A DNA stretch of 64,000 nucleotides from Betaproteobacteria bacterium (lineage in GTDB: Bacteria > Pseudomonadota > Gammaproteobacteria > Burkholderiales > SG8-39). Made by a program: the position numbers and the translations under genes. The notes under the pieces were generated by a model, which was not told the DNA's origin, did no database searches, and was given only the letters and a program-made list of their open reading frames with translations. Location of the stretch: positions 400 to 64,399 of the forward strand of contig CANKAJ010000002.1 in assembly GCA_947479645.1 (NCBI GenBank), written 5' to 3'. Numbering within the stretch: position 1 is the stretch's first letter; the number at the start of each line of letters is the position of its first letter. Below are positions 203 to 32,901 of the stretch, piece after piece.

Positions 203-781
203 ATGGATTTATTCCTGTACTTGACGAAAAAACGATGGGTAAATGCATGGATAAACGGGGGTGAGATCCCTATATCGTTGGTAAGTTCCTACTTGAGCCC
301 AATTCGCTCCGGCACAAAAACTCCCGATGAGAACCTGATCAATGATATGAATATAGATATCCAGCAGCTGTTCCCCTTGATTAGTATTGGAGAAGGCGGC
401 GGCCTACGAAATGCCAACTTCCAAAACAATTATGTTAACGGTCATCTGTTGCCTGAAGTACAGGATGGTAACTACTTCCACGAAGATGGCCTGATCTTGT
501 CCTTTTCACTCCAACAAAGCAGAGAGATTGCGGTGCGGATGGGTAAGGAATCTTGCGTTAAGATTCAAGACATCAATTATTTAAAGCTATGCGTAGATAA
601 TCAGCTCGGACTAAACGGCATACTCCGAGAGTGTGAGTACACGGATGGGCCAAACAGAAATCACTTCCTCAAGTCGGTAGCTGACTCATGGCAACAAGAA
701 CTCCGAATATTTTGGCCCGGAAGCATTAAAAAATCTGTTGTGCTGCCTAGTGGTATTGCAGAGCCAGTAAGCTTGGAATGA
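203..781 (+). CDS. hypothetical protein, 192 aa, soluble; weak DUF2971-like pattern
   Basis: ATG ORF inside the low-GC islet. No signal peptide or hydrophobic span. LFLYLTKKRWVNAWINGGEIPI ... GLILSFS ... SWQQELRIFW loosely recalls DUF2971-type proteins (from memory, not verifiable here). No clear SD. Confidence 0.45.
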   Translation: MDLFLYLTKKRWVNAWINGGEIPISLVSSYLSPIRSGTKTPDENLINDMNIDIQQLFPLISIGEGGGLRNANFQNNYVNGHLLPEVQDGNYFHEDGLILSFSLQQSREIAVRMGKESCVKIQDINYLKLCVDNQLGLNGILRECEYTDGPNRNHFLKSVADSWQQELRIFWPGSIKKSVVLPSGIAEPVSLE

Positions 782-1038
782 TGAACGAATTGCAAGTTTT
801 CATGGTGGTGTTTTTCTTTTGTCACGGCGCGTGACCTGGGCGCGTAATTGACCATGTAATTCTGTGATGTGCTGGCAGCTCTGATACCCCAAGCGATATG
901 TAGTGGCAGAAAGTGCAGCATGAATAAGTTCGAATGTGGTGTTCTTGATCCTAATTGACCATAGATAGGGGCTAACGTATAGTCATTCGGATGCTCTAGT
1001 GCCGAGTAATCCCTCACTTTGGATTACAGGTAGCATGC

Positions 1039-2343
1039 GTGGAGATCATAGAAAGGTGCGCAAGGGTGGTTCAGAAATCCTACAGGAAGAAGGTGAAGCC
1101 AGGGCTGTATCCGATCGAGATATTACAGATTGATGTTGCTGGCTCAAGCACGTCGCTGTATTCAAAAGTAAGTCCACAAGATAAGTCAAAAGCAGCACAG
1201 CTTTTCAGGGATTTTTTTAAGGGGATTTGTTTAAGTGCGGGTGGCCGCATGCATGGTGAATGGGTCGGTGATGGGGGGTGTGCGTTTTTCCCTAGTTCAA
1301 GCGACGAAGAAATCGGGAATTCTGTGATTGCCGCGAAGGAAATCCTTGATAAATTGCGCTATCAAAATATTGAAACCGCTACGGCAATCGGCAGAACAGA
1401 ATTTCCCCGAAGGATTCGATTATCAGCACATCGCGGTGAAATATATATTTCAGGTAAAGGCGATGGCGTAGACGCGGCAGAGTCAAAGCATTTCGATCAC
1501 TTTAAAAAATATGAAAGGCGATTTGCGCCAAATCCTGATGAGTTTTTTATCACTGACGGGCTATTCAAGGTCTTGCCAGGAGAGTCACAGTCTGAATTTG
1601 AGCACTTCAGAAATATCAAAGCTGGAGCGATTTCGACAGGGCTCTACAGACTAAAAGCAGCACCCAAGCCTCGCACAGAAAATATCTTTAGGTTGGGAGA
1701 CAAGCTTAAGAGCATGTCCCAAAGCGATTGGGAGTACCTACGAACACAAATTTATGCGCATTATGTGAATGTTGCTGCCCGAAATAGGATTACAAAAGGT
1801 CTTATTTCCCATTTGCGTGGGACACCCAGGAAGGGAGCTCGACGGATCTCCGGTGAAGTCCTGCTAGATCTGACCTTGGAAGCGTTAGCGGGATATCTTA
1901 AGATTGCCTTTCCTACTCGGCGCATACGTGTGAGCTATTGGCGTCCAATTACAAAATCATTGATCGCAATGGTTGCGTATAAATATCCAGATGGTGAAAT
2001 GACAAACCCATCTAATCGGAAAATCTCCTTGAAAGACCGTAGCTTCAAAGTTTGTAAGTGCTTTGCGGATGCTGAACCTGTAGTTACGCCTTCCGTCGTT
2101 GCAGCACGTCTTGCGGGGAATTGGTACGACTTTGACGCAAAGCAAAAGGTAAATGGCCGGGCGTTGATGTCTGCACTTCAGCTCCCAATCTACGTTGAAA
2201 CTGACACCGGGACAAAGGAGGTGAAGGGCGTACTTTCGCTTGATTCAAATCAGTCCGACGTATTCCTGCCCCAGGAAGTTAGCTTGTGGCGGGATGAATT
2301 GGTTGGATTTATGGCAAATTTGGCACTAGCAGAGAGTTTGTAA
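1039..2343 (+). CDS. class III nucleotidyl-cyclase-like (palm) domain fused to a C-terminal GAF-like domain, 434 aa
   Basis: GTG start is uncertain; in-frame GTGs also at 1069 and 1093. Residues ~25-210 carry cyclase-like motifs: ILQIDVAGSSTSL (first metal Asp, cf. DxxG[FS]T), GGRMHGEWVGDGGCAFF (second Asp, cf. GD), RIRLSAHRGEIYISG (cf. RIGIHxG). Residues ~270-430 show a GAF-like pattern: IRVSYWRP...MSALQLPIYVE...KEVKGVLSLDSNQSDVF...LVGFMANLALAES. Confidence 0.6.
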   Translation: MEIIERCARVVQKSYRKKVKPGLYPIEILQIDVAGSSTSLYSKVSPQDKSKAAQLFRDFFKGICLSAGGRMHGEWVGDGGCAFFPSSSDEEIGNSVIAAKEILDKLRYQNIETATAIGRTEFPRRIRLSAHRGEIYISGKGDGVDAAESKHFDHFKKYERRFAPNPDEFFITDGLFKVLPGESQSEFEHFRNIKAGAISTGLYRLKAAPKPRTENIFRLGDKLKSMSQSDWEYLRTQIYAHYVNVAARNRITKGLISHLRGTPRKGARRISGEVLLDLTLEALAGYLKIAFPTRRIRVSYWRPITKSLIAMVAYKYPDGEMTNPSNRKISLKDRSFKVCKCFADAEPVVTPSVVAARLAGNWYDFDAKQKVNGRALMSALQLPIYVETDTGTKEVKGVLSLDSNQSDVFLPQEVSLWRDELVGFMANLALAESL

Positions 2344-2412
2344 GCTAGTGAACTATGTCACGTGGGTATTTTGCTGGAAGCTGTATAATTCGCGGTCGAA
2401 AAGGGAGTTCTT

Positions 2413-2604
2413 ATGTCTGTGGTTCGGCAAAAGAGAGCAAAAGTTACGGCGTCGGCTACCAAACAAGCGGCAACAGAGCAGGAAATTCGGAGTAGGGCTG
2501 ATTATTCCCTTGCGGTACTTGGGATGGCGTTTGTACGCAATGGTTCTGGTCGGTTCCTAAATATTCGTGCTCATGGAGATCGCCTGATGAAGAAGGTGGC
2601 CTAG
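2413..2604 (+). CDS. small basic hypothetical protein, 63 aa
   Basis: ATG preceded by a strong SD (AAGGGAG, 2400-2406, 6 nt spacer). Lies 70 nt after the cyclase/GAF gene on the same strand. No recognisable motif. Confidence 0.35.
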   Translation: MSVVRQKRAKVTASATKQAATEQEIRSRADYSLAVLGMAFVRNGSGRFLNIRAHGDRLMKKVA

Positions 2605-2903
2605 GTGTAGCAGCATGATTTCATGCGTGCCTGCATGAATTGCATTTGCCGTTTGCGTTGATCGATTTCCCCCGCAGTTGGTGGTTCCCTCACCTAACCT
2701 GCAAAATACGACTGTGGTGCCATTCTTTGACAGCCGTATGCTATGTTTACGTTGGAGTCCAGTGTGGGGGCGTCAATCGCGATTTCCATTAGCGGTTGGT
2801 GACCCAAACTAGTGACCCAAATGCGGCAAATAATCTCAATATTCACCGTATTTAATGCGGAGAATATATTGCCATTGCGGGGATAAACCCGCATAATCAC
2901 CGC

Positions 2904-4037
2904 ATGAAAAGCGGAGAAAAGATTTACATCTGGCAACAGCAGGACTGGCCGCACTGGCGCTATGACATTCAGCGGTTGATGGGCCTGCTCGGCCAGGTTC
3001 ATCGTGCACAGGGTAATTTGCTGGGCCGGATGCAGACCTTGGGTCTGGGGCTGCGCGAGCAGGCCACCTTGCAGGTATTGACCGAGGACGTGGTCAAGAC
3101 CAGCGAGATCGAAGGCGAACATCTCAACCCCGACGCTGTTCGCTCCTCGATTGCCCGTCGTCTGGGCGTGGATATCGGATCCCTGGCCCCGTCCGATCGA
3201 CACGTCGATGGCGTCGTGGAAATGGTGATGGATGCAACCGCGAATCATCATCTGGCGCTGACGCCGGAGCGATTGTTTGGATGGCATGCCGCGCTATTTC
3301 CAACCGGCTACAGTGGTATGGTCCCAATTCCCACTGGAAGTTGGCGCGATGATGCGACCGGCCCGATGCAAGTGGTGTCCGGTCCGGTTGGCCGGCAGAA
3401 AGTGCATTTCGAAGCGCCTCCCGCCAATTCGCTGAATGCCGAAATGTCGGCCCTGTTGTCGTGGTTCAACGTCGACCAGCATGATGATCCGCTGGTCAAG
3501 GCAGGCCTCGCCCATCTCTGGTTCGTCACCATCCATCCGTTCGACGATGGCAACGGTCGTATCGCACGGGCAGTCGGGGATATGGCACTGGCTCGTGTTG
3601 ATCAATCACCGCAGCGGTTTTACAGCCTGTCGGCGCAAATCCAGCGTGAACGAAAGGACTATTACGACATGCTTGAGCGCACCCAGAAGGGTTCGCTTGA
3701 CGTGACGGACTGGCTTGAATGGTTCCTGGGTTGCCTGTTGCGCACGATGCAGGGCGCCGAGGGGACCTTGTCTGCCGTTCTGGCCAAGGCGAATTTCTGG
3801 CAGCGCTGGGCCGGCACGCCGATGAACGAGAGGCAGATCAAGTTGCTGAACCGTCTGCTTGATGGATTCGAGGGAAAACTCACCAGCAGCAAGTGGGCTG
3901 CCATTGCCAAGTATTCGCCCGATACCGCGCTGCGTGACATCAATGAGTTGGTGTCGCTCGGTGTTTTGACGAAGGCGCCGGGGGGCGGCCGCAGTACTGC
4001 GTACGAGCTTATTGGCTATAATTTCCAGCAACAGTGA
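2904..4037 (+). CDS. Fic family protein (AMPylase-type fold), class II auto-inhibited architecture
   Basis: HPFDDGNGRIARA matches the Fic motif HxFx[DE]GNGRxxR. TSEIEG upstream matches the inhibitory [ST]xxxE[GN] motif. N-terminal IWQQQDWPHWRYD is DUF4172-type. The C-terminal tail is wHTH-like. Confidence 0.9.
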   Translation: MKSGEKIYIWQQQDWPHWRYDIQRLMGLLGQVHRAQGNLLGRMQTLGLGLREQATLQVLTEDVVKTSEIEGEHLNPDAVRSSIARRLGVDIGSLAPSDRHVDGVVEMVMDATANHHLALTPERLFGWHAALFPTGYSGMVPIPTGSWRDDATGPMQVVSGPVGRQKVHFEAPPANSLNAEMSALLSWFNVDQHDDPLVKAGLAHLWFVTIHPFDDGNGRIARAVGDMALARVDQSPQRFYSLSAQIQRERKDYYDMLERTQKGSLDVTDWLEWFLGCLLRTMQGAEGTLSAVLAKANFWQRWAGTPMNERQIKLLNRLLDGFEGKLTSSKWAAIAKYSPDTALRDINELVSLGVLTKAPGGGRSTAYELIGYNFQQQ

Positions 4038-4083: not shown

Positions 4084-5097
4084 ATGTTGCACGTCGAGCC
4101 AGTCAAGCACTCCATCACAAGAAATTGGTCCGGCAAATTCCTTACCGGCGTTGGATTGTTTGTTGCGATCTTGCCGTCAATTGCACTTGCTCAAGCTTAC
4201 CCGGCAAAGCTCGTCAAGATGACCGTGCCTTTCTCGGCCGGCGGCAGCATAGACCTGCTTGGTCGGCTCGTCGGCAAAAAAATGGAGGAGGGCCTAGGGG
4301 CTACGGTTGTCATCGAGAACAAGGGAGGCGGTGGCGGAACAATCGGAACCAAGGCAGTTCTTGATTCCAGGCCGGACGGCTCCAGCATCGCCATTGTTTC
4401 ACCTGGGCCCACGACCGTCGCAGCGGTTCTTGACCCAACCTTGCAATACAACATTACCAAGGATATTACTTATATCGTTGCCCTGGCGAGCTATGTGCCT
4501 GCGGTGGTGGCGGGGCTTCAGGTGCCGGGACGGACGCTGAGGGAATTCATCGATTATGCGAAAAAGAACCCGGGGAAACTGACATTTGGCAGCGCCGGTG
4601 TCGGTTCCAGCACCCACATCCTGGGAGAATTGTTCGTCAGGGCCGCCGGCGTTGACATCATTCATGTGCCGTTCAAAGGGGGTTCTGGCGGGATTCAGGA
4701 TGTGCTGGGCGGCCACATTTCACTGATGATTACGAGTCTGGTTGCGGCCCAGCCCTTGATCAATTCGGGCAAGGTTAAAGCGTTTGCAGCGTTTGACAAG
4801 GAACGCTATCCCACTTTCCCGACGGTGCCTGCAGTGACAGAGGACATGCCGAGCTTTGATCCTCCCATCATCTGGTACGGCCTGATCGGCCCGGCCGGGA
4901 TGCCGGCGACGATTACGGATCGTCTGAACCGCGAAGCCATCAAGGCGCTGGCTTCGGCCGAAGTCCAAAAGGAAATCATCAGCGGTGCCTACAAAGTCAT
5001 CGGCGGAAGTCCCAGGGACTTTCAGGAACTGATCCGCAAGGATGCAACTGTTCTGGGTGATATTGTCCGGGCAGCGAAGATTACGCTCGAAAAGTAA
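4084..5097 (+). CDS. Bug/TctC-family periplasmic substrate-binding protein
   Basis: Signal peptide, then AQAYPAKLVKMTVPFSAGGS, GGGGTIG, GSAGVGSSTHI and HVPFKGG. Start moved to ATG 4084 (the ORF track extends to 4012, overlapping fic). Confidence 0.9.
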   Translation: MLHVEPVKHSITRNWSGKFLTGVGLFVAILPSIALAQAYPAKLVKMTVPFSAGGSIDLLGRLVGKKMEEGLGATVVIENKGGGGGTIGTKAVLDSRPDGSSIAIVSPGPTTVAAVLDPTLQYNITKDITYIVALASYVPAVVAGLQVPGRTLREFIDYAKKNPGKLTFGSAGVGSSTHILGELFVRAAGVDIIHVPFKGGSGGIQDVLGGHISLMITSLVAAQPLINSGKVKAFAAFDKERYPTFPTVPAVTEDMPSFDPPIIWYGLIGPAGMPATITDRLNREAIKALASAEVQKEIISGAYKVIGGSPRDFQELIRKDATVLGDIVRAAKITLEK

Positions 5098-31710: not shown

Positions 31711-32901
31711 TTACAACTGCGTGATATCGACCTTCTGGTTCAGTTGACTGACGGACTCCACCCGGTTTCGCCCGGAGGACCGGGCCCGGAAAATGGCTAC
31801 TTGCGCGGAACTGACCAGATCATTCCATGTGGTTCTGCCCGGCTGCAGGTGGGTAATGCCAATGCTGGCTGTGGTCCGAATCGCCTTGTCATTGACCATG
31901 CAGGTTCCTGATTCGATCTCTATTCGCAAATGCTCGGCGACTTCCAATGCAGTAGTAGGGTGGGTATGCGGCATGACCAGGGCAATTTGGTCGATGCTGT
32001 AACGTCCAACGATATCGCTTGGACGGGCAATCCGTCTGCAGATGTCCTCGACCCACTGCATGAGTTCATGACCTGTTTCAAGGCCATGGCTCCTGCTGAT
32101 GACTTTGAAGTTGTCCAGATCAATCAATGCAATGGAAAGTGGGCCACTCTGGCTCTGTGCGATTTCCTTCTGGGACTGCGCGATCAGTGTTTGTCTTGCG
32201 GCCGAAATCGTTTTTTCGGTGTTGCTGGCAATGGCCTGTTTATCTGTGTGCAGCAATTGGAGTTCAAGCCACACGACTGCCACGATGGTGAGCAGCAGCA
32301 GGATCGGCTTGACGCTGAACATGACCGTCATCGGTGGGCCAGCAAGCAGCAGACTCTGCGATTGCTCTCCGTATATTGCGGTCGCTACAGCCGTGAACAA
32401 CATCATGAATGACGCAAATCCTGCCAGGGCGCCCAGAGTAATTGATGGCAACGAGCCGTTATGTTGAGAATAGGCCATGATGCGCCAGGCGATCCTGCCA
32501 AGCAGGAATGTCGATGCCAGAGAAATCAGGATGATTCTGAACTCGAGATTCGGGGCGTAGTAGGTGAACCAGGTGAGTAACGGGAAATCGGCGACGACGA
32601 TCGACCATCCCAGAATGTCCCGTTTGGGCGGGCGGGAGGCATCAAGGCGATGCACTCCGGTATAAAGCAGAATGAAAGCAACATGCGCCAGGGCATTTGC
32701 CAGGATGATGGACACGAAATCCGGAGCGATATTGCGTGTGGAGACTGCGGCGTTTGCAGCGCAAAGGCATAACAGCGCAAGTCCGAAATGTCTGAGCAAC
32801 CGGGTTTGTGGCCGCAGATTTGCAAATATCAGAGAAAGCGAGCCTGCGATCAATCCAGAAATGAAGGAAAGCTCAAATAGCGAACGGACATCCAAAATCA
32901 A
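31711..32901 (-). CDS. membrane-anchored degenerate GGDEF-domain protein
   Basis: About 6 N-terminal TM segments. GGDEF-fold region LIDLDNFKVISRSHG...RPSDIVGRYSIDQIALV has SIDQI in place of GGDEF and an RxxD (RPSD) five residues upstream. TTG start is uncertain. Confidence 0.75.
   Translation of the reverse strand: MILDVRSLFELSFISGLIAGSLSLIFANLRPQTRLLRHFGLALLCLCAANAAVSTRNIAPDFVSIILANALAHVAFILLYTGVHRLDASRPPKRDILGWSIVVADFPLLTWFTYYAPNLEFRIILISLASTFLLGRIAWRIMAYSQHNGSLPSITLGALAGFASFMMLFTAVATAIYGEQSQSLLLAGPPMTVMFSVKPILLLLTIVAVVWLELQLLHTDKQAIASNTEKTISAARQTLIAQSQKEIAQSQSGPLSIALIDLDNFKVISRSHGLETGHELMQWVEDICRRIARPSDIVGRYSIDQIALVMPHTHPTTALEVAEHLRIEIESGTCMVNDKAIRTTASIGITHLQPGRTTWNDLVSSAQVAIFRARSSGRNRVESVSQLNQKVDITQL

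Follow-up and report, generated by a model that had tools for sequence, protein, structure and literature searches.

A divergent class III-type cyclase with a C-terminal GAF domain and a small basic partner protein form a candidate mobile signalling cassette

Main

Enzymes of the CyaB1/CyaB2 type, in which GAF domains regulate a class III cyclase, have their GAF domains in tandem, on the N-terminal side of the catalytic domain. A sequence-only reading of the window analysed here, a 64,000-nt stretch of contig CANKAJ010000002.1 from a Betaproteobacteria bacterium, described a protein with the reverse arrangement: a palm of either class III cyclase or GGDEF type, a linker and then a GAF-like C terminus. 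What kind of protein this is, and whether it acts alone, are the questions that the locus raises. We found no published description of a cyclase with a C-terminal GAF domain, or of the small protein, here called X, that is encoded beside it. In our preferred reading, to which we assign a probability of about 0.42, the locus is a signalling cassette of two genes that spreads horizontally, in which a GAF-gated class III-type cyclase is regulated by X, the whole forming a conflict- or addiction-type module.

Results

A conserved gene outside curated families

The cyclase–GAF gene lies at positions 1039–2343 of the forward strand, where the longest ORF has 434 codons (434 aa) and translates to a protein that contains every motif originally quoted for it. 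Its probable start is a GTG at 1093 with an AGGAAG Shine–Dalgarno sequence upstream, which gives a protein of 416 aa, equal to the database gene call. There are 17 full-length homologues (35–54% identity, best E 1e-142), and a search of 1.84 billion proteins gave 46 cluster representatives at E ≤ 1e-30; this is therefore a real conserved gene and not a chance ORF.

The protein had zero matches to models of Pfam, NCBIfam, PADLOC or PHROGs (Pfam and PADLOC at E ≤ 1), which places the family outside all curated models tried. A Pfam scan of 17–18 close homologues also returned nothing, and a phmmer search against PDB sequences gave no match. A lack of significant matches to the Guanylate_cyc (PF00211), GGDEF (PF00990) and GAF HMMs had been named earlier as grounds for refuting the domain assignments, and read to the letter this outcome holds for the protein and for all 18 close homologues. 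Only profile-to-PDB search (E 7e-4), profile–profile alignment and fold comparison reveal the domains.

The AlphaFold2 monomer model of the protein (pLDDT 87, pTM 0.83), together with Foldseek searches, places a cyclase-type palm at the N terminus and a GAF fold at the C terminus, with no third globular domain, so that the unusual order first read from the letters stands. The whole-chain pTM of 0.83 suggests that the cyclase and GAF domains hold a fixed arrangement. Transmembrane-type helices are absent from the model, and the GRAVY value is −0.32.

The cyclase domain

The class III cyclase-homology domain (residues ~20–205; positions 1096..1653, forward strand) emerged from profile-to-PDB searches, Foldseek and hhalign. 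Its top 50 Foldseek matches in the PDB were exclusively class III cyclases (E to 3e-9), aligned over ~190–210 columns with TM scores of up to 0.83 on the target and headed by Cya2, CyaC, CyaB and Rv1900c. When the family profile (A1) was searched against the PDB, only cyclases and SPT5 matched; the seven cyclase matches were all class III, the best with an E of 7e-4. A PF00211 search of the genome found ten other genes, the cyclase–GAF gene not among them, and hhalign of the domain against these ten canonical PF00211 domains gave probabilities of 81–91%.

The palm fold is common to class III and GGDEF enzymes, and one BFVD diguanylate cyclase did appear low among the viral matches, at rank 44 with an E of 0.43. 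A GGDEF-type diguanylate cyclase nevertheless deserves almost no credence as the identity of the palm: PF00990 gave no Pfam match, no GGDEF structure stood in the top 50, the motif reads WVGDGG rather than GG[DE]EF, and hhalign to PF00211-type domains spans the whole domain. The top-50 fold matches, the cyclase matches of the PDB profile search and the WxGDGG motif settle the ambiguity of the initial reading: the palm is of the class III type.

The catalytic motifs quoted in the initial reading also survived alignment. By hhalign, D32 pairs with the first metal Asp and D78 with the 'GD' metal Asp of the canonical domains, and R127, H131 and G133 align to their 'RIGIHTG' strand. The spacing of the two Asp residues is 46 in this protein and 44–45 in most relatives, compared with the ~44 given at the outset. 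Across 37 family members, with identity down to 19%, D32, G77-D78 and R127 are invariant; judged by alignment, D32 and D78 would be the metal-binding Asp residues and R127 the beta4 Arg.

In alpha4, D153 occupies the canonical Asn position and K157 the Arg position, and E159 is retained at the Glu position. This placement was reached in two steps, from the family profile A1 to the A8 relatives (hhalign probability 99.8%, E 1.5e-27) and from A8 to PDB 3mr7 (E 1.5e-7, with 'gdflnkflkne' set against 'GDAVNVAARLE'). Direct hhalign of alpha4 to the canonical domains gave low confidence and introduced a 6-residue gap; because that gap conflicts with the predicted helix, the direct alignment was dropped for the route through these closer WxGDGG relatives. 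Some divergent family members have Asn at position 153. The adenine-specifying Lys position is occupied by W75 and varies among distant members (W, R, F, S, P), so the substrate is not predictable from the base-specifying residues.

The retention of D32, D78 and R127, together with Asp153 and Lys157 in alpha4, points to a domain that is probably active but non-canonical. Positions such as D32, G77-D78, R127, D153 and K157 would otherwise be unlikely to be preserved, which argues against an inactive domain. The exchanges of Asn for Asp and Arg for Lys, and the Trp in place of the specificity Lys, could reflect weak activity or a chemistry of another kind. An active enzyme would add to the class III repertoire an Asp/Lys pair in place of the Asn/Arg transition-state pair.

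The GAF domain and the inter-domain helix

The C-terminal GAF-fold domain covers residues 272–434 (positions 1852..2340, forward strand). That the last ~160 residues form a GAF domain, as had been proposed, is borne out by a C-terminal model with a pLDDT of 92 and a Foldseek top 50 made up exclusively of GAF folds, among them fRMsr, sensor GAF domains, PDE6 and phytochromes (E to 3.5e-7, TM to 0.77 on the target). Neither the cyclase–GAF protein nor its close homologues gave an HMM match to PF01590 or PF13185. The divergent member P0105 matches PF01590 with 25.3 bits against a cut-off of 22.4, and two others, P0136 and P0114, match GAF_2 weakly and below the cut-off (E 3e-4 to 5e-4). As first proposed, the domain could serve in feedback by binding the product, or act as an effector.

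The ~60-residue linker between the two domains is not a simple spacer. The model and family conservation reveal in it a long basic helix (residues 228–261; positions 1720..1821, forward strand) that carries NxAARNxIT, the most conserved motif of the family. Among the 37 members R248 is nearly invariant and N249 invariant, and the conservation of ARN-IT equals that of the catalytic Asp residues. Although it lies beyond the canonical cyclase domain, the R248-N249 pair may contribute to catalysis or gating.

In another reading the protein is not a cyclase in function: the palm would be a nucleotidyltransferase acting on X or on nucleic acid, or a catalytically weak scaffold, and the basic helix and X would bind RNA or DNA. 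The D153 and K157 substitutions fit such a protein, as do the Trp in place of the base-specifying Lys, the position of the invariant R-N pair outside the canonical domain, and the high pI values of the whole protein (9.5), the segment 206–271 that forms the linker (11.3) and X (11.6). On the other hand, the metal Asp pair, the beta4 Arg and D or N at the Asn position are kept, as expected for normal two-metal NTP chemistry, and the match to cyclases runs end to end over about 190–210 aligned columns. We know of no class III cyclase domain that acts as a protein or RNA nucleotidyltransferase, and we regard this reading as improbable.

A small basic partner protein

The cyclase–GAF gene does not stand alone: the gene for X comes next in every locus examined. 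X lies 30–95 nt 3′ of the cyclase–GAF gene, on the same strand, in 14/14 distinct loci across phyla. In the window it occupies positions 2413..2604 (forward strand) and encodes 63 aa (~7 kDa, pI 11.6); among loci its size ranges from roughly 55 to 80 aa, with a pI of ~11.6. Conservation and a coding signature identify X as a protein. Third codon positions vary at 56/56 sites, against 37–40/56 for the first and second positions, with a pN/pS of 0.26–0.59; the codon-position pattern excluded a conserved RNA element, which we had considered. The conserved core reads I-R-x-R-A-[DN]-Y-S-L-A-x-L-G-x-x-F-V-R-N-G-S-G-R-F-L-N-I-R. Searches of Pfam, NCBIfam and PHROGs gave no matches for X, and its only PDB match was at chance level; the family is unannotated, crosses phyla and comprises at least 154 clusters.

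The two genes are apparently co-transcribed, as judged from sequence signals. No terminator-like site was found between them, and X has its own Shine–Dalgarno sequence, AAGGGAG (2401..2407, forward strand), with 5 nt from its end to the ATG. A terminator-like hairpin with a T-rich tail (2620..2649, forward strand) follows 16 nt past the X stop; it is a consensus match only. Upstream of the cyclase–GAF gene, a promoter-like site, TTGACC-17-TATAGT (955..983, forward strand), has 10/12 consensus matches, and this too is a consensus match only, of a kind no more frequent here than in shuffled sequence. Its −35 hexamer falls within the second copy (952–962) of a repeated 11-mer, TAATTGACCAT.

About two thirds of metagenomic loci have X but no cyclase, so X has an independent function and is more than a dedicated antitoxin. 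Solo copies are found sporadically in small-genome bacteria, once as a tandem pair, and the 30-residue core is 60–85% identical between Proteobacteria and small-genome bacteria. Synteny of the form rnc-X-smc hinted at a housekeeping gene of small-genome (CPR-like) bacteria, yet X was present in 1/201 phylum genomes sampled, and we rejected that assignment.

Foreign origin and genomic neighbourhood

The cassette is rare, horizontally acquired and of foreign origin, as shown by its composition, its position and its absence from relatives. Its GC content is 46%, compared with 57% for the remaining window, and its GC3 0.43, compared with 0.65–0.69; it forms a low-GC islet that adjoins the end of an IS630-like transposase at the contig start. 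Searches of 40 related genomes (0/40) and of 399 other genomes of the same class (0/399) did not find the cyclase–GAF gene. Nor did the cassette turn up among IMG/VR viral contigs, and searches of 50,697 phage and 72,556 plasmid records found neither cyclase–GAF nor X.

At other cyclase–GAF loci, mobile neighbours include a serine recombinase, an integrase and a DDE transposase, and further neighbours a Toprim/DnaB-type primase–helicase gene, PIN-MazE, Vsr, an SLFN-like helicase and M78 peptidases. Some loci (L010 and L032) are surrounded by ordinary metabolic genes. We rejected a three-gene cassette that would include the upstream 192-aa ORF, since tblastn found no relative of it in any other cyclase–GAF locus; the same search found no relatives of the Fic gene in these loci, so that neither the ORF nor the Fic gene is a conserved partner. 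An effector joining a cNMP-binding domain with TM or TIR was absent from the window and from all other loci examined.

The patchy distribution and the mobile-element neighbours argue for a role in conflict, whether defence or addiction, rather than in housekeeping. They weigh directly against an ordinary physiological cyclase of the cAMP/cGMP type, whose GAF domain would sense a metabolite and whose operon partner X would be an unrelated regulator or nucleic-acid-binding protein. We consider that doubtful. In its favour, the top fold matches Cya2, CyaC, CyaB and Rv1900c are housekeeping cyclases, GAF-regulated cyclases are well established in CyaB1/CyaB2, some loci sit among metabolic genes, and the ten canonical cyclases of the genome indicate rich cNMP signalling. 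Such an enzyme would hardly be expected to be so extremely patchy (0/399 class genomes, 0/40 relatives), to have a foreign composition and flanking mobile elements, to be strictly linked to X in 14/14 loci across phyla or to be too divergent in sequence for detection by PF00211.

Relatives with similarity to Pycsar cyclases

Among the outer relatives of the cyclase domain, 31/85 match PADLOC PycC models, and 2/10 of the nearest do so weakly; outer relatives also carry STAND, TPR, NUDIX or nuclease fusions. PycC proteins are likewise divergent class III cyclases that the general Pfam model detects poorly (PMC9117128; 10.64898/2026.08.12.744502), and a patchy, mobile distribution is common to both. 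The fusions seen in some outer relatives resemble those of the Pycsar-related 'immune clade 1', with its STAND, TPR and nuclease domains (10.64898/2026.08.12.744502). The Pycsar-2 subclade carries a fused AGS-C domain (10.64898/2026.08.12.744502), and the fused domain here is GAF, a word that does not occur in that preprint. There are also differences: PADLOC PycC models do not match the cyclase–GAF protein at E ≤ 1, and the adjacent effector with cNMP-binding and TM or TIR parts that accompanies Pycsar cyclases is lacking at cyclase–GAF loci, where the only constant neighbour is the ~60-aa basic X.

A further reading is a Pycsar-like abortive infection system, with X as the effector. Infection would activate the cyclase, the cyclic nucleotide would bind the enzyme's own GAF domain and thereby free sequestered X, and X would block a conserved cellular target and arrest growth. 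The matches of the nearest outer relatives to PycC models speak for it. The GAF domain would be the sole candidate receptor, because no locus has a separate cNMP-binding effector, and cNMP-binding GAF domains (PDE6) are among its fold matches. A core of X that is 60–85% identical across groups is what a binder of a universally conserved target would show. Against it, the solo copies of X in small genomes, with one case of two copies in tandem, ill fit an intrinsically toxic protein, and the few long contigs to hand showed no enrichment of the cassette beside known defence systems. We judge abortive infection of this kind unlikely. A related variant, to which we give a still lower place among unlikely readings, has a PycC-related cyclase sense its own product through the cis-fused GAF domain and so control an ultra-conserved basic X acting on a universal target; this self-contained conflict system would hold synthase, receptor and effector all within two genes.

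Discussion

We favour the mobile cassette with X as regulator, which would probably be a new self-contained second-messenger module. Its first gene would encode a dimeric class III-type nucleotidyl cyclase of a divergent 'WxGDGG' clade, probably active, whose own C-terminal GAF domain would gate catalytic output through the conserved basic helix. We infer that X binds the helix–GAF module and either restrains the enzyme or passes on its state. Sensing of a ligand by the GAF domain, or loss or displacement of X, would then trigger synthesis of a nucleotide, cyclic or other. With pI values of 9.5 and 11.6, the two proteins are both basic, so there is no electrostatic case for a complex, and the charge could instead mean nucleic-acid binding. 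The analysis establishes the folds, the conservation of the catalytic positions, the strict linkage of the two genes and the foreign origin, whereas enzymatic activity, the product, the GAF ligand, binding by X and the biological role are inferred.

The enzyme resembles Anabaena CyaB1/CyaB2 in joining a class III cyclase and GAF in one polypeptide, and a similar logic of control by a GAF ligand would be expected. It differs in having a single C-terminal GAF domain, joined by a helix with an invariant motif of its own, in having Asp/Lys instead of the catalytic Asn/Arg, in lying outside PF00211 and in its obligate small partner gene. If the enzyme is active, it would reverse the order of sensor and catalyst and add a conserved helix possibly engaged in catalysis or gating. 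Strict pairing with a protein of ~60 aa makes the cassette a tractable system for the regulation of GAF-containing enzymes by small proteins, and it could show whether cyclic-nucleotide immunity works without a separate effector.

Analogies for the proposed action of X on the helix–GAF module come from two systems. In SpoIISA/SpoIISB of Bacillus subtilis (PMC3057836; PDB 3O6Q), an extended helix is followed by a GAF domain and a same-strand gene for a protein of ~56 aa comes next, a layout similar to the one described here. SpoIISB, of 56 aa, is natively disordered and wraps the helix–GAF dimer of SpoIISA (PMC3057836), and X might engage its partner in a comparable way. SpoIISA is a three-TM membrane toxin without an enzyme domain, whereas the cyclase–GAF protein is soluble and has a cyclase domain, and X, in contrast to SpoIISB, occurs also alone; Pfam searches with both proteins and the search of A1 against the PDB gave no sign of sequence similarity between the systems. 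The second system, PDE6, is a eukaryotic phosphodiesterase and not a cyclase, and the likeness is one of analogy, as nothing indicates that the partner proteins are homologous; in it, the GAF domain of a cyclic-nucleotide enzyme contacts a small basic inhibitory polypeptide, P-gamma, and PDE6 is itself among the fold matches of the GAF domain described here.

A rare cyclase–GAF gene at the head of a two-gene unit

The plus-strand open reading frame at 1039–2343 (434 codons in the window translation, the numbering used here) encodes a protein that we assign to the class III cyclases as a presumably GAF-regulated, Pycsar-related member. Its translation contains every motif named in the sequence-only reading, which had proposed a class III or GGDEF palm followed by a GAF-like domain; the domain reading was right, and the palm falls on the cyclase side of that choice. 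The more likely start is the GTG at 1093, which is preceded by AGGAAG and agrees with both the 416-amino-acid gene call in the protein collection and the N termini of homologues. We found 17 full-length homologues (35–54% identity), and an exhaustive family-profile search of 1.84 billion cluster representatives returned 46 at E ≤ 1e-30. The family is thus conserved yet rare, and on this evidence the gene is genuine and maintained by selection.

In each of 14 distinct cyclase–GAF loci examined, from Burkholderiales, Myxococcales and Deltaproteobacteria MAGs and unbinned metagenome contigs, a gene for a small basic protein, X, lies 30–95 nt downstream on the same strand; six further pairs were inferred from contigs of matching length. 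The cyclase–GAF gene is of greater interest than first put, because it is half of a strictly conserved, rare and mobile unit, neither gene of which is covered by the curated libraries scanned.

Domain identities and the inter-domain helix

Direct scans of Pfam, NCBIfam, PADLOC and PHROG gave no match to the cyclase–GAF protein, and its homologues had none in Pfam. On the HMM check proposed by the sequence-only reading, the direct Pfam comparison therefore went against it, but profile-to-PDB search and fold comparison recovered both domains. In the PDB, the family profile matched class III cyclases: Cya2 (2w01; E 7e-4) and, with weaker scores, the Pycsar uridylate and cytidylate cyclases 8jsz, 7r65 and 8jsf. 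An AlphaFold2 model on the family alignment (pLDDT 87, pTM 0.83) was compared with the PDB using Foldseek: the best 50 matches of the whole protein were all class III cyclase catalytic domains (TM on target up to 0.83 over ~190–210 columns), which excludes a GGDEF identity for the palm. For a second model of residues 225–434 (pLDDT 92), the best 50 were GAF folds only (fRMsr, sensor GAF domains, PDE6 GAF and phytochrome GAF). Weak Pfam GAF matches were also present in divergent family members, one of them above the cut-off. Profile and fold matches place the cyclase-homology domain at residues ~20–205, and the fold match of the model places the GAF domain at 272–434.

The 66 residues between them (206–271, pI 11.3), previously described as a linker, are no featureless spacer: they are mostly a long helix (228–261) carrying NxAARNxIT, the best-conserved motif in the entire protein. 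In a 37-member alignment, every sequence has N249 and almost every one R248, the most distant members included. By eye the motif is like the canonical ‘VNxAARxE’, and it is located outside a complete cyclase domain. The helix may serve in dimerisation or signalling, or may donate residues to the active site.

In P0105, a distant family member of 857 amino acids, the C terminus bears one more domain, NAD-binding and S-adenosylhomocysteine-hydrolase-like. One locus encodes, some 1.3 kb upstream of its cyclase–GAF gene, an unannotated 255-amino-acid protein (L006:3824–4651, L045:182–1009) with a weak match to family-profile positions 16–174 (E 7e-4 to 9e-4), which could represent a second, degenerate cyclase-like domain.

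Catalytic positions and relatives of the cyclase domain

We aligned the family profile to the ten canonical PF00211 domains of the same genome. D32 falls opposite the first metal Asp, D78 opposite the ‘GD’ metal Asp, and R127, H131 and G133 opposite ‘RIGIHTG’; W75 occupies the position of the adenine-specifying Lys. D32, G77, D78 and R127 are invariant in the 37-member alignment, down to 19% identity. Because direct alignment of alpha4 was unreliable, we took a route through closer relatives, a ‘WxGDGG’ clade of unannotated cyclase-like domains that the family matches with 99.8% probability (E 1.5e-27). Aligned to the solved cyclase 3mr7, this clade sets ‘gdflnkflkne’ opposite ‘GDAVNVAARLE’, and by transitivity D153 lies at the transition-state Asn, K157 at the Arg and E159 at the conserved Glu position; nearly all members carry Asp or Asn at residue 153. 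Since conserved polar residues fill all catalytic positions, two of them by conservative substitution, we read the protein as a probable active enzyme with non-canonical details. One main alternative is that the palm domain would catalyse a different nucleotidyl transfer.

The WxGDGG clade (P0068–P0104, alignment A8) has the consensus QVDIxGHS...WAGDGG...GDFINxFLKxER, keeping the alpha4 Asn with Lys at the Arg position. Fusion partners of these domains are NUDIX, TPR or long C-terminal regions lacking annotation, and the ten nearest relatives tested lack a PF00211 match. Among 85 outer relatives drawn from family-profile matches at E 1e-14 to 1e-5, 31 matched PADLOC models of the Pycsar cyclase PycC and 16 matched PF00211; several carry STAND/AAA_16, NB-ARC, TPR, NUDIX or nuclease domains. 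These outer relatives resemble the ‘immune’ cyclase clades of a 2026 Pucsar preprint (10.64898/2026.08.12.744502), which does not mention a GAF fusion. Neither X nor a cyclase bearing a GAF domain at its C terminus was described in the literature searched. A second main alternative is that X would be the effector of a Pycsar-like system sensing its own product in cis.

With its ten canonical cyclases (373–792 amino acids), this genome already has abundant cyclic-nucleotide signalling, and some cyclase–GAF loci elsewhere are set among ordinary metabolic genes; the third main alternative is that of an ordinary physiological cyclase.

A low-GC islet and signs of mobility

GC content is 44–50% at positions 1–2600 versus 57% in the rest of the window, and GC3 is 0.43–0.45 in the cyclase–GAF and X genes versus 0.65–0.69 in host-type genes. 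The contig starts 400 nt before the window, inside an open reading frame ending ‘...NPKPFIWTAKAQDILEKV...’ (L013:3–149, ~250–400 nt upstream of position 1), which we take from its motif to be the C terminus of an IS630-family transposase. This transposase end is the likely cause of the assembly break and probably marks where the islet lies on its left flank.

Searches of 10 genomes of the same genus, 30 more relatives and 399 additional genomes of the class did not find the cyclase–GAF gene, and scanning one genome per species for its pattern turned it up in only two of 185,579 species. Neighbours at other loci include a serine recombinase, an integrase with a Toprim/DnaB-type primase–helicase gene, a DDE transposase, PIN–MazE, Vsr, an SLFN-like helicase and M78 peptidases. 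The cassette was absent from the sequenced phages, plasmids and IMG/VR searched.

Two flanking genes have no counterparts at other cyclase–GAF loci and so stand outside the unit. The 192-amino-acid open reading frame at 203–781 (+), upstream in the same islet, has no match in Pfam (E ≤ 1), NCBIfam, PADLOC or PHROG; it is orphan cargo rather than a conserved partner. Directly after the islet, a Fic-family gene at 2904–4037 (+; DUF4172, Fic and HTH; PADLOC SoFic, E 1e-43) has a host-like GC of 0.59.

The partner X and a proposed mechanism

X, at 2413–2604 (+), encodes 63 amino acids (pI 11.6) behind a strong Shine–Dalgarno sequence, AAGGGAG, shows a protein-coding pattern in codon-position statistics and has no second copy in its genome. 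Its core of ~30 residues, IRxRA[DN]YSLAxLGxxFVRNGSGRFLNIR, is 60–85% identical across phyla.

This unannotated small-protein family, with at least 154 clusters, is larger than the cyclase–GAF family, and no cyclase–GAF gene lies upstream at roughly two thirds of the 39 metagenomic X loci. NGSG occurs in 16 of 16 cassette-linked copies and HGSG in 12 of the 17 that stand alone. X-alone copies occur in small AT-rich genomes (L029:4001–4183; L033:4001–4171; a tandem pair at L038:3995–4216 and 4194–4385), between rnc and smc or among toxin–antitoxin genes, flanked by hicAB and pemIK-like genes. A housekeeping role there was rejected: of the 201 genomes sampled across that phylum, a single one carried X, which is thus a sporadic accessory gene in it too.

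The best-supported reading of the cassette is that the GAF domain would gate the cyclase, whose state would be coupled to X, with the two genes forming a mobile unit of the conflict or addiction type. For the second half of the protein, the nearest structural parallel, compared in gene order and fold, is SpoIISA/SpoIISB, in which an extended helix and GAF are wrapped by a 56-amino-acid disordered protein encoded by the next gene (PMC3057836).

A promoter-like site precedes the cyclase–GAF gene, and the sole terminator-like site follows X. The 69-nt spacer between the genes holds a perfect TATAAT (2384–2389, +), 24 nt before the ATG, and X might have an additional promoter of its own. In the cyclase–GAF leader, the 11-mer TAATTGACCAT occurs twice exactly (845–855 and 952–962, +), with one-mismatch copies at 31889 and 39433 (4 matches versus 0.6 expected). 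The −35-like hexamer of the predicted promoter lies within the second leader copy, so the repeat could act as an operator or belong to a tandem promoter.
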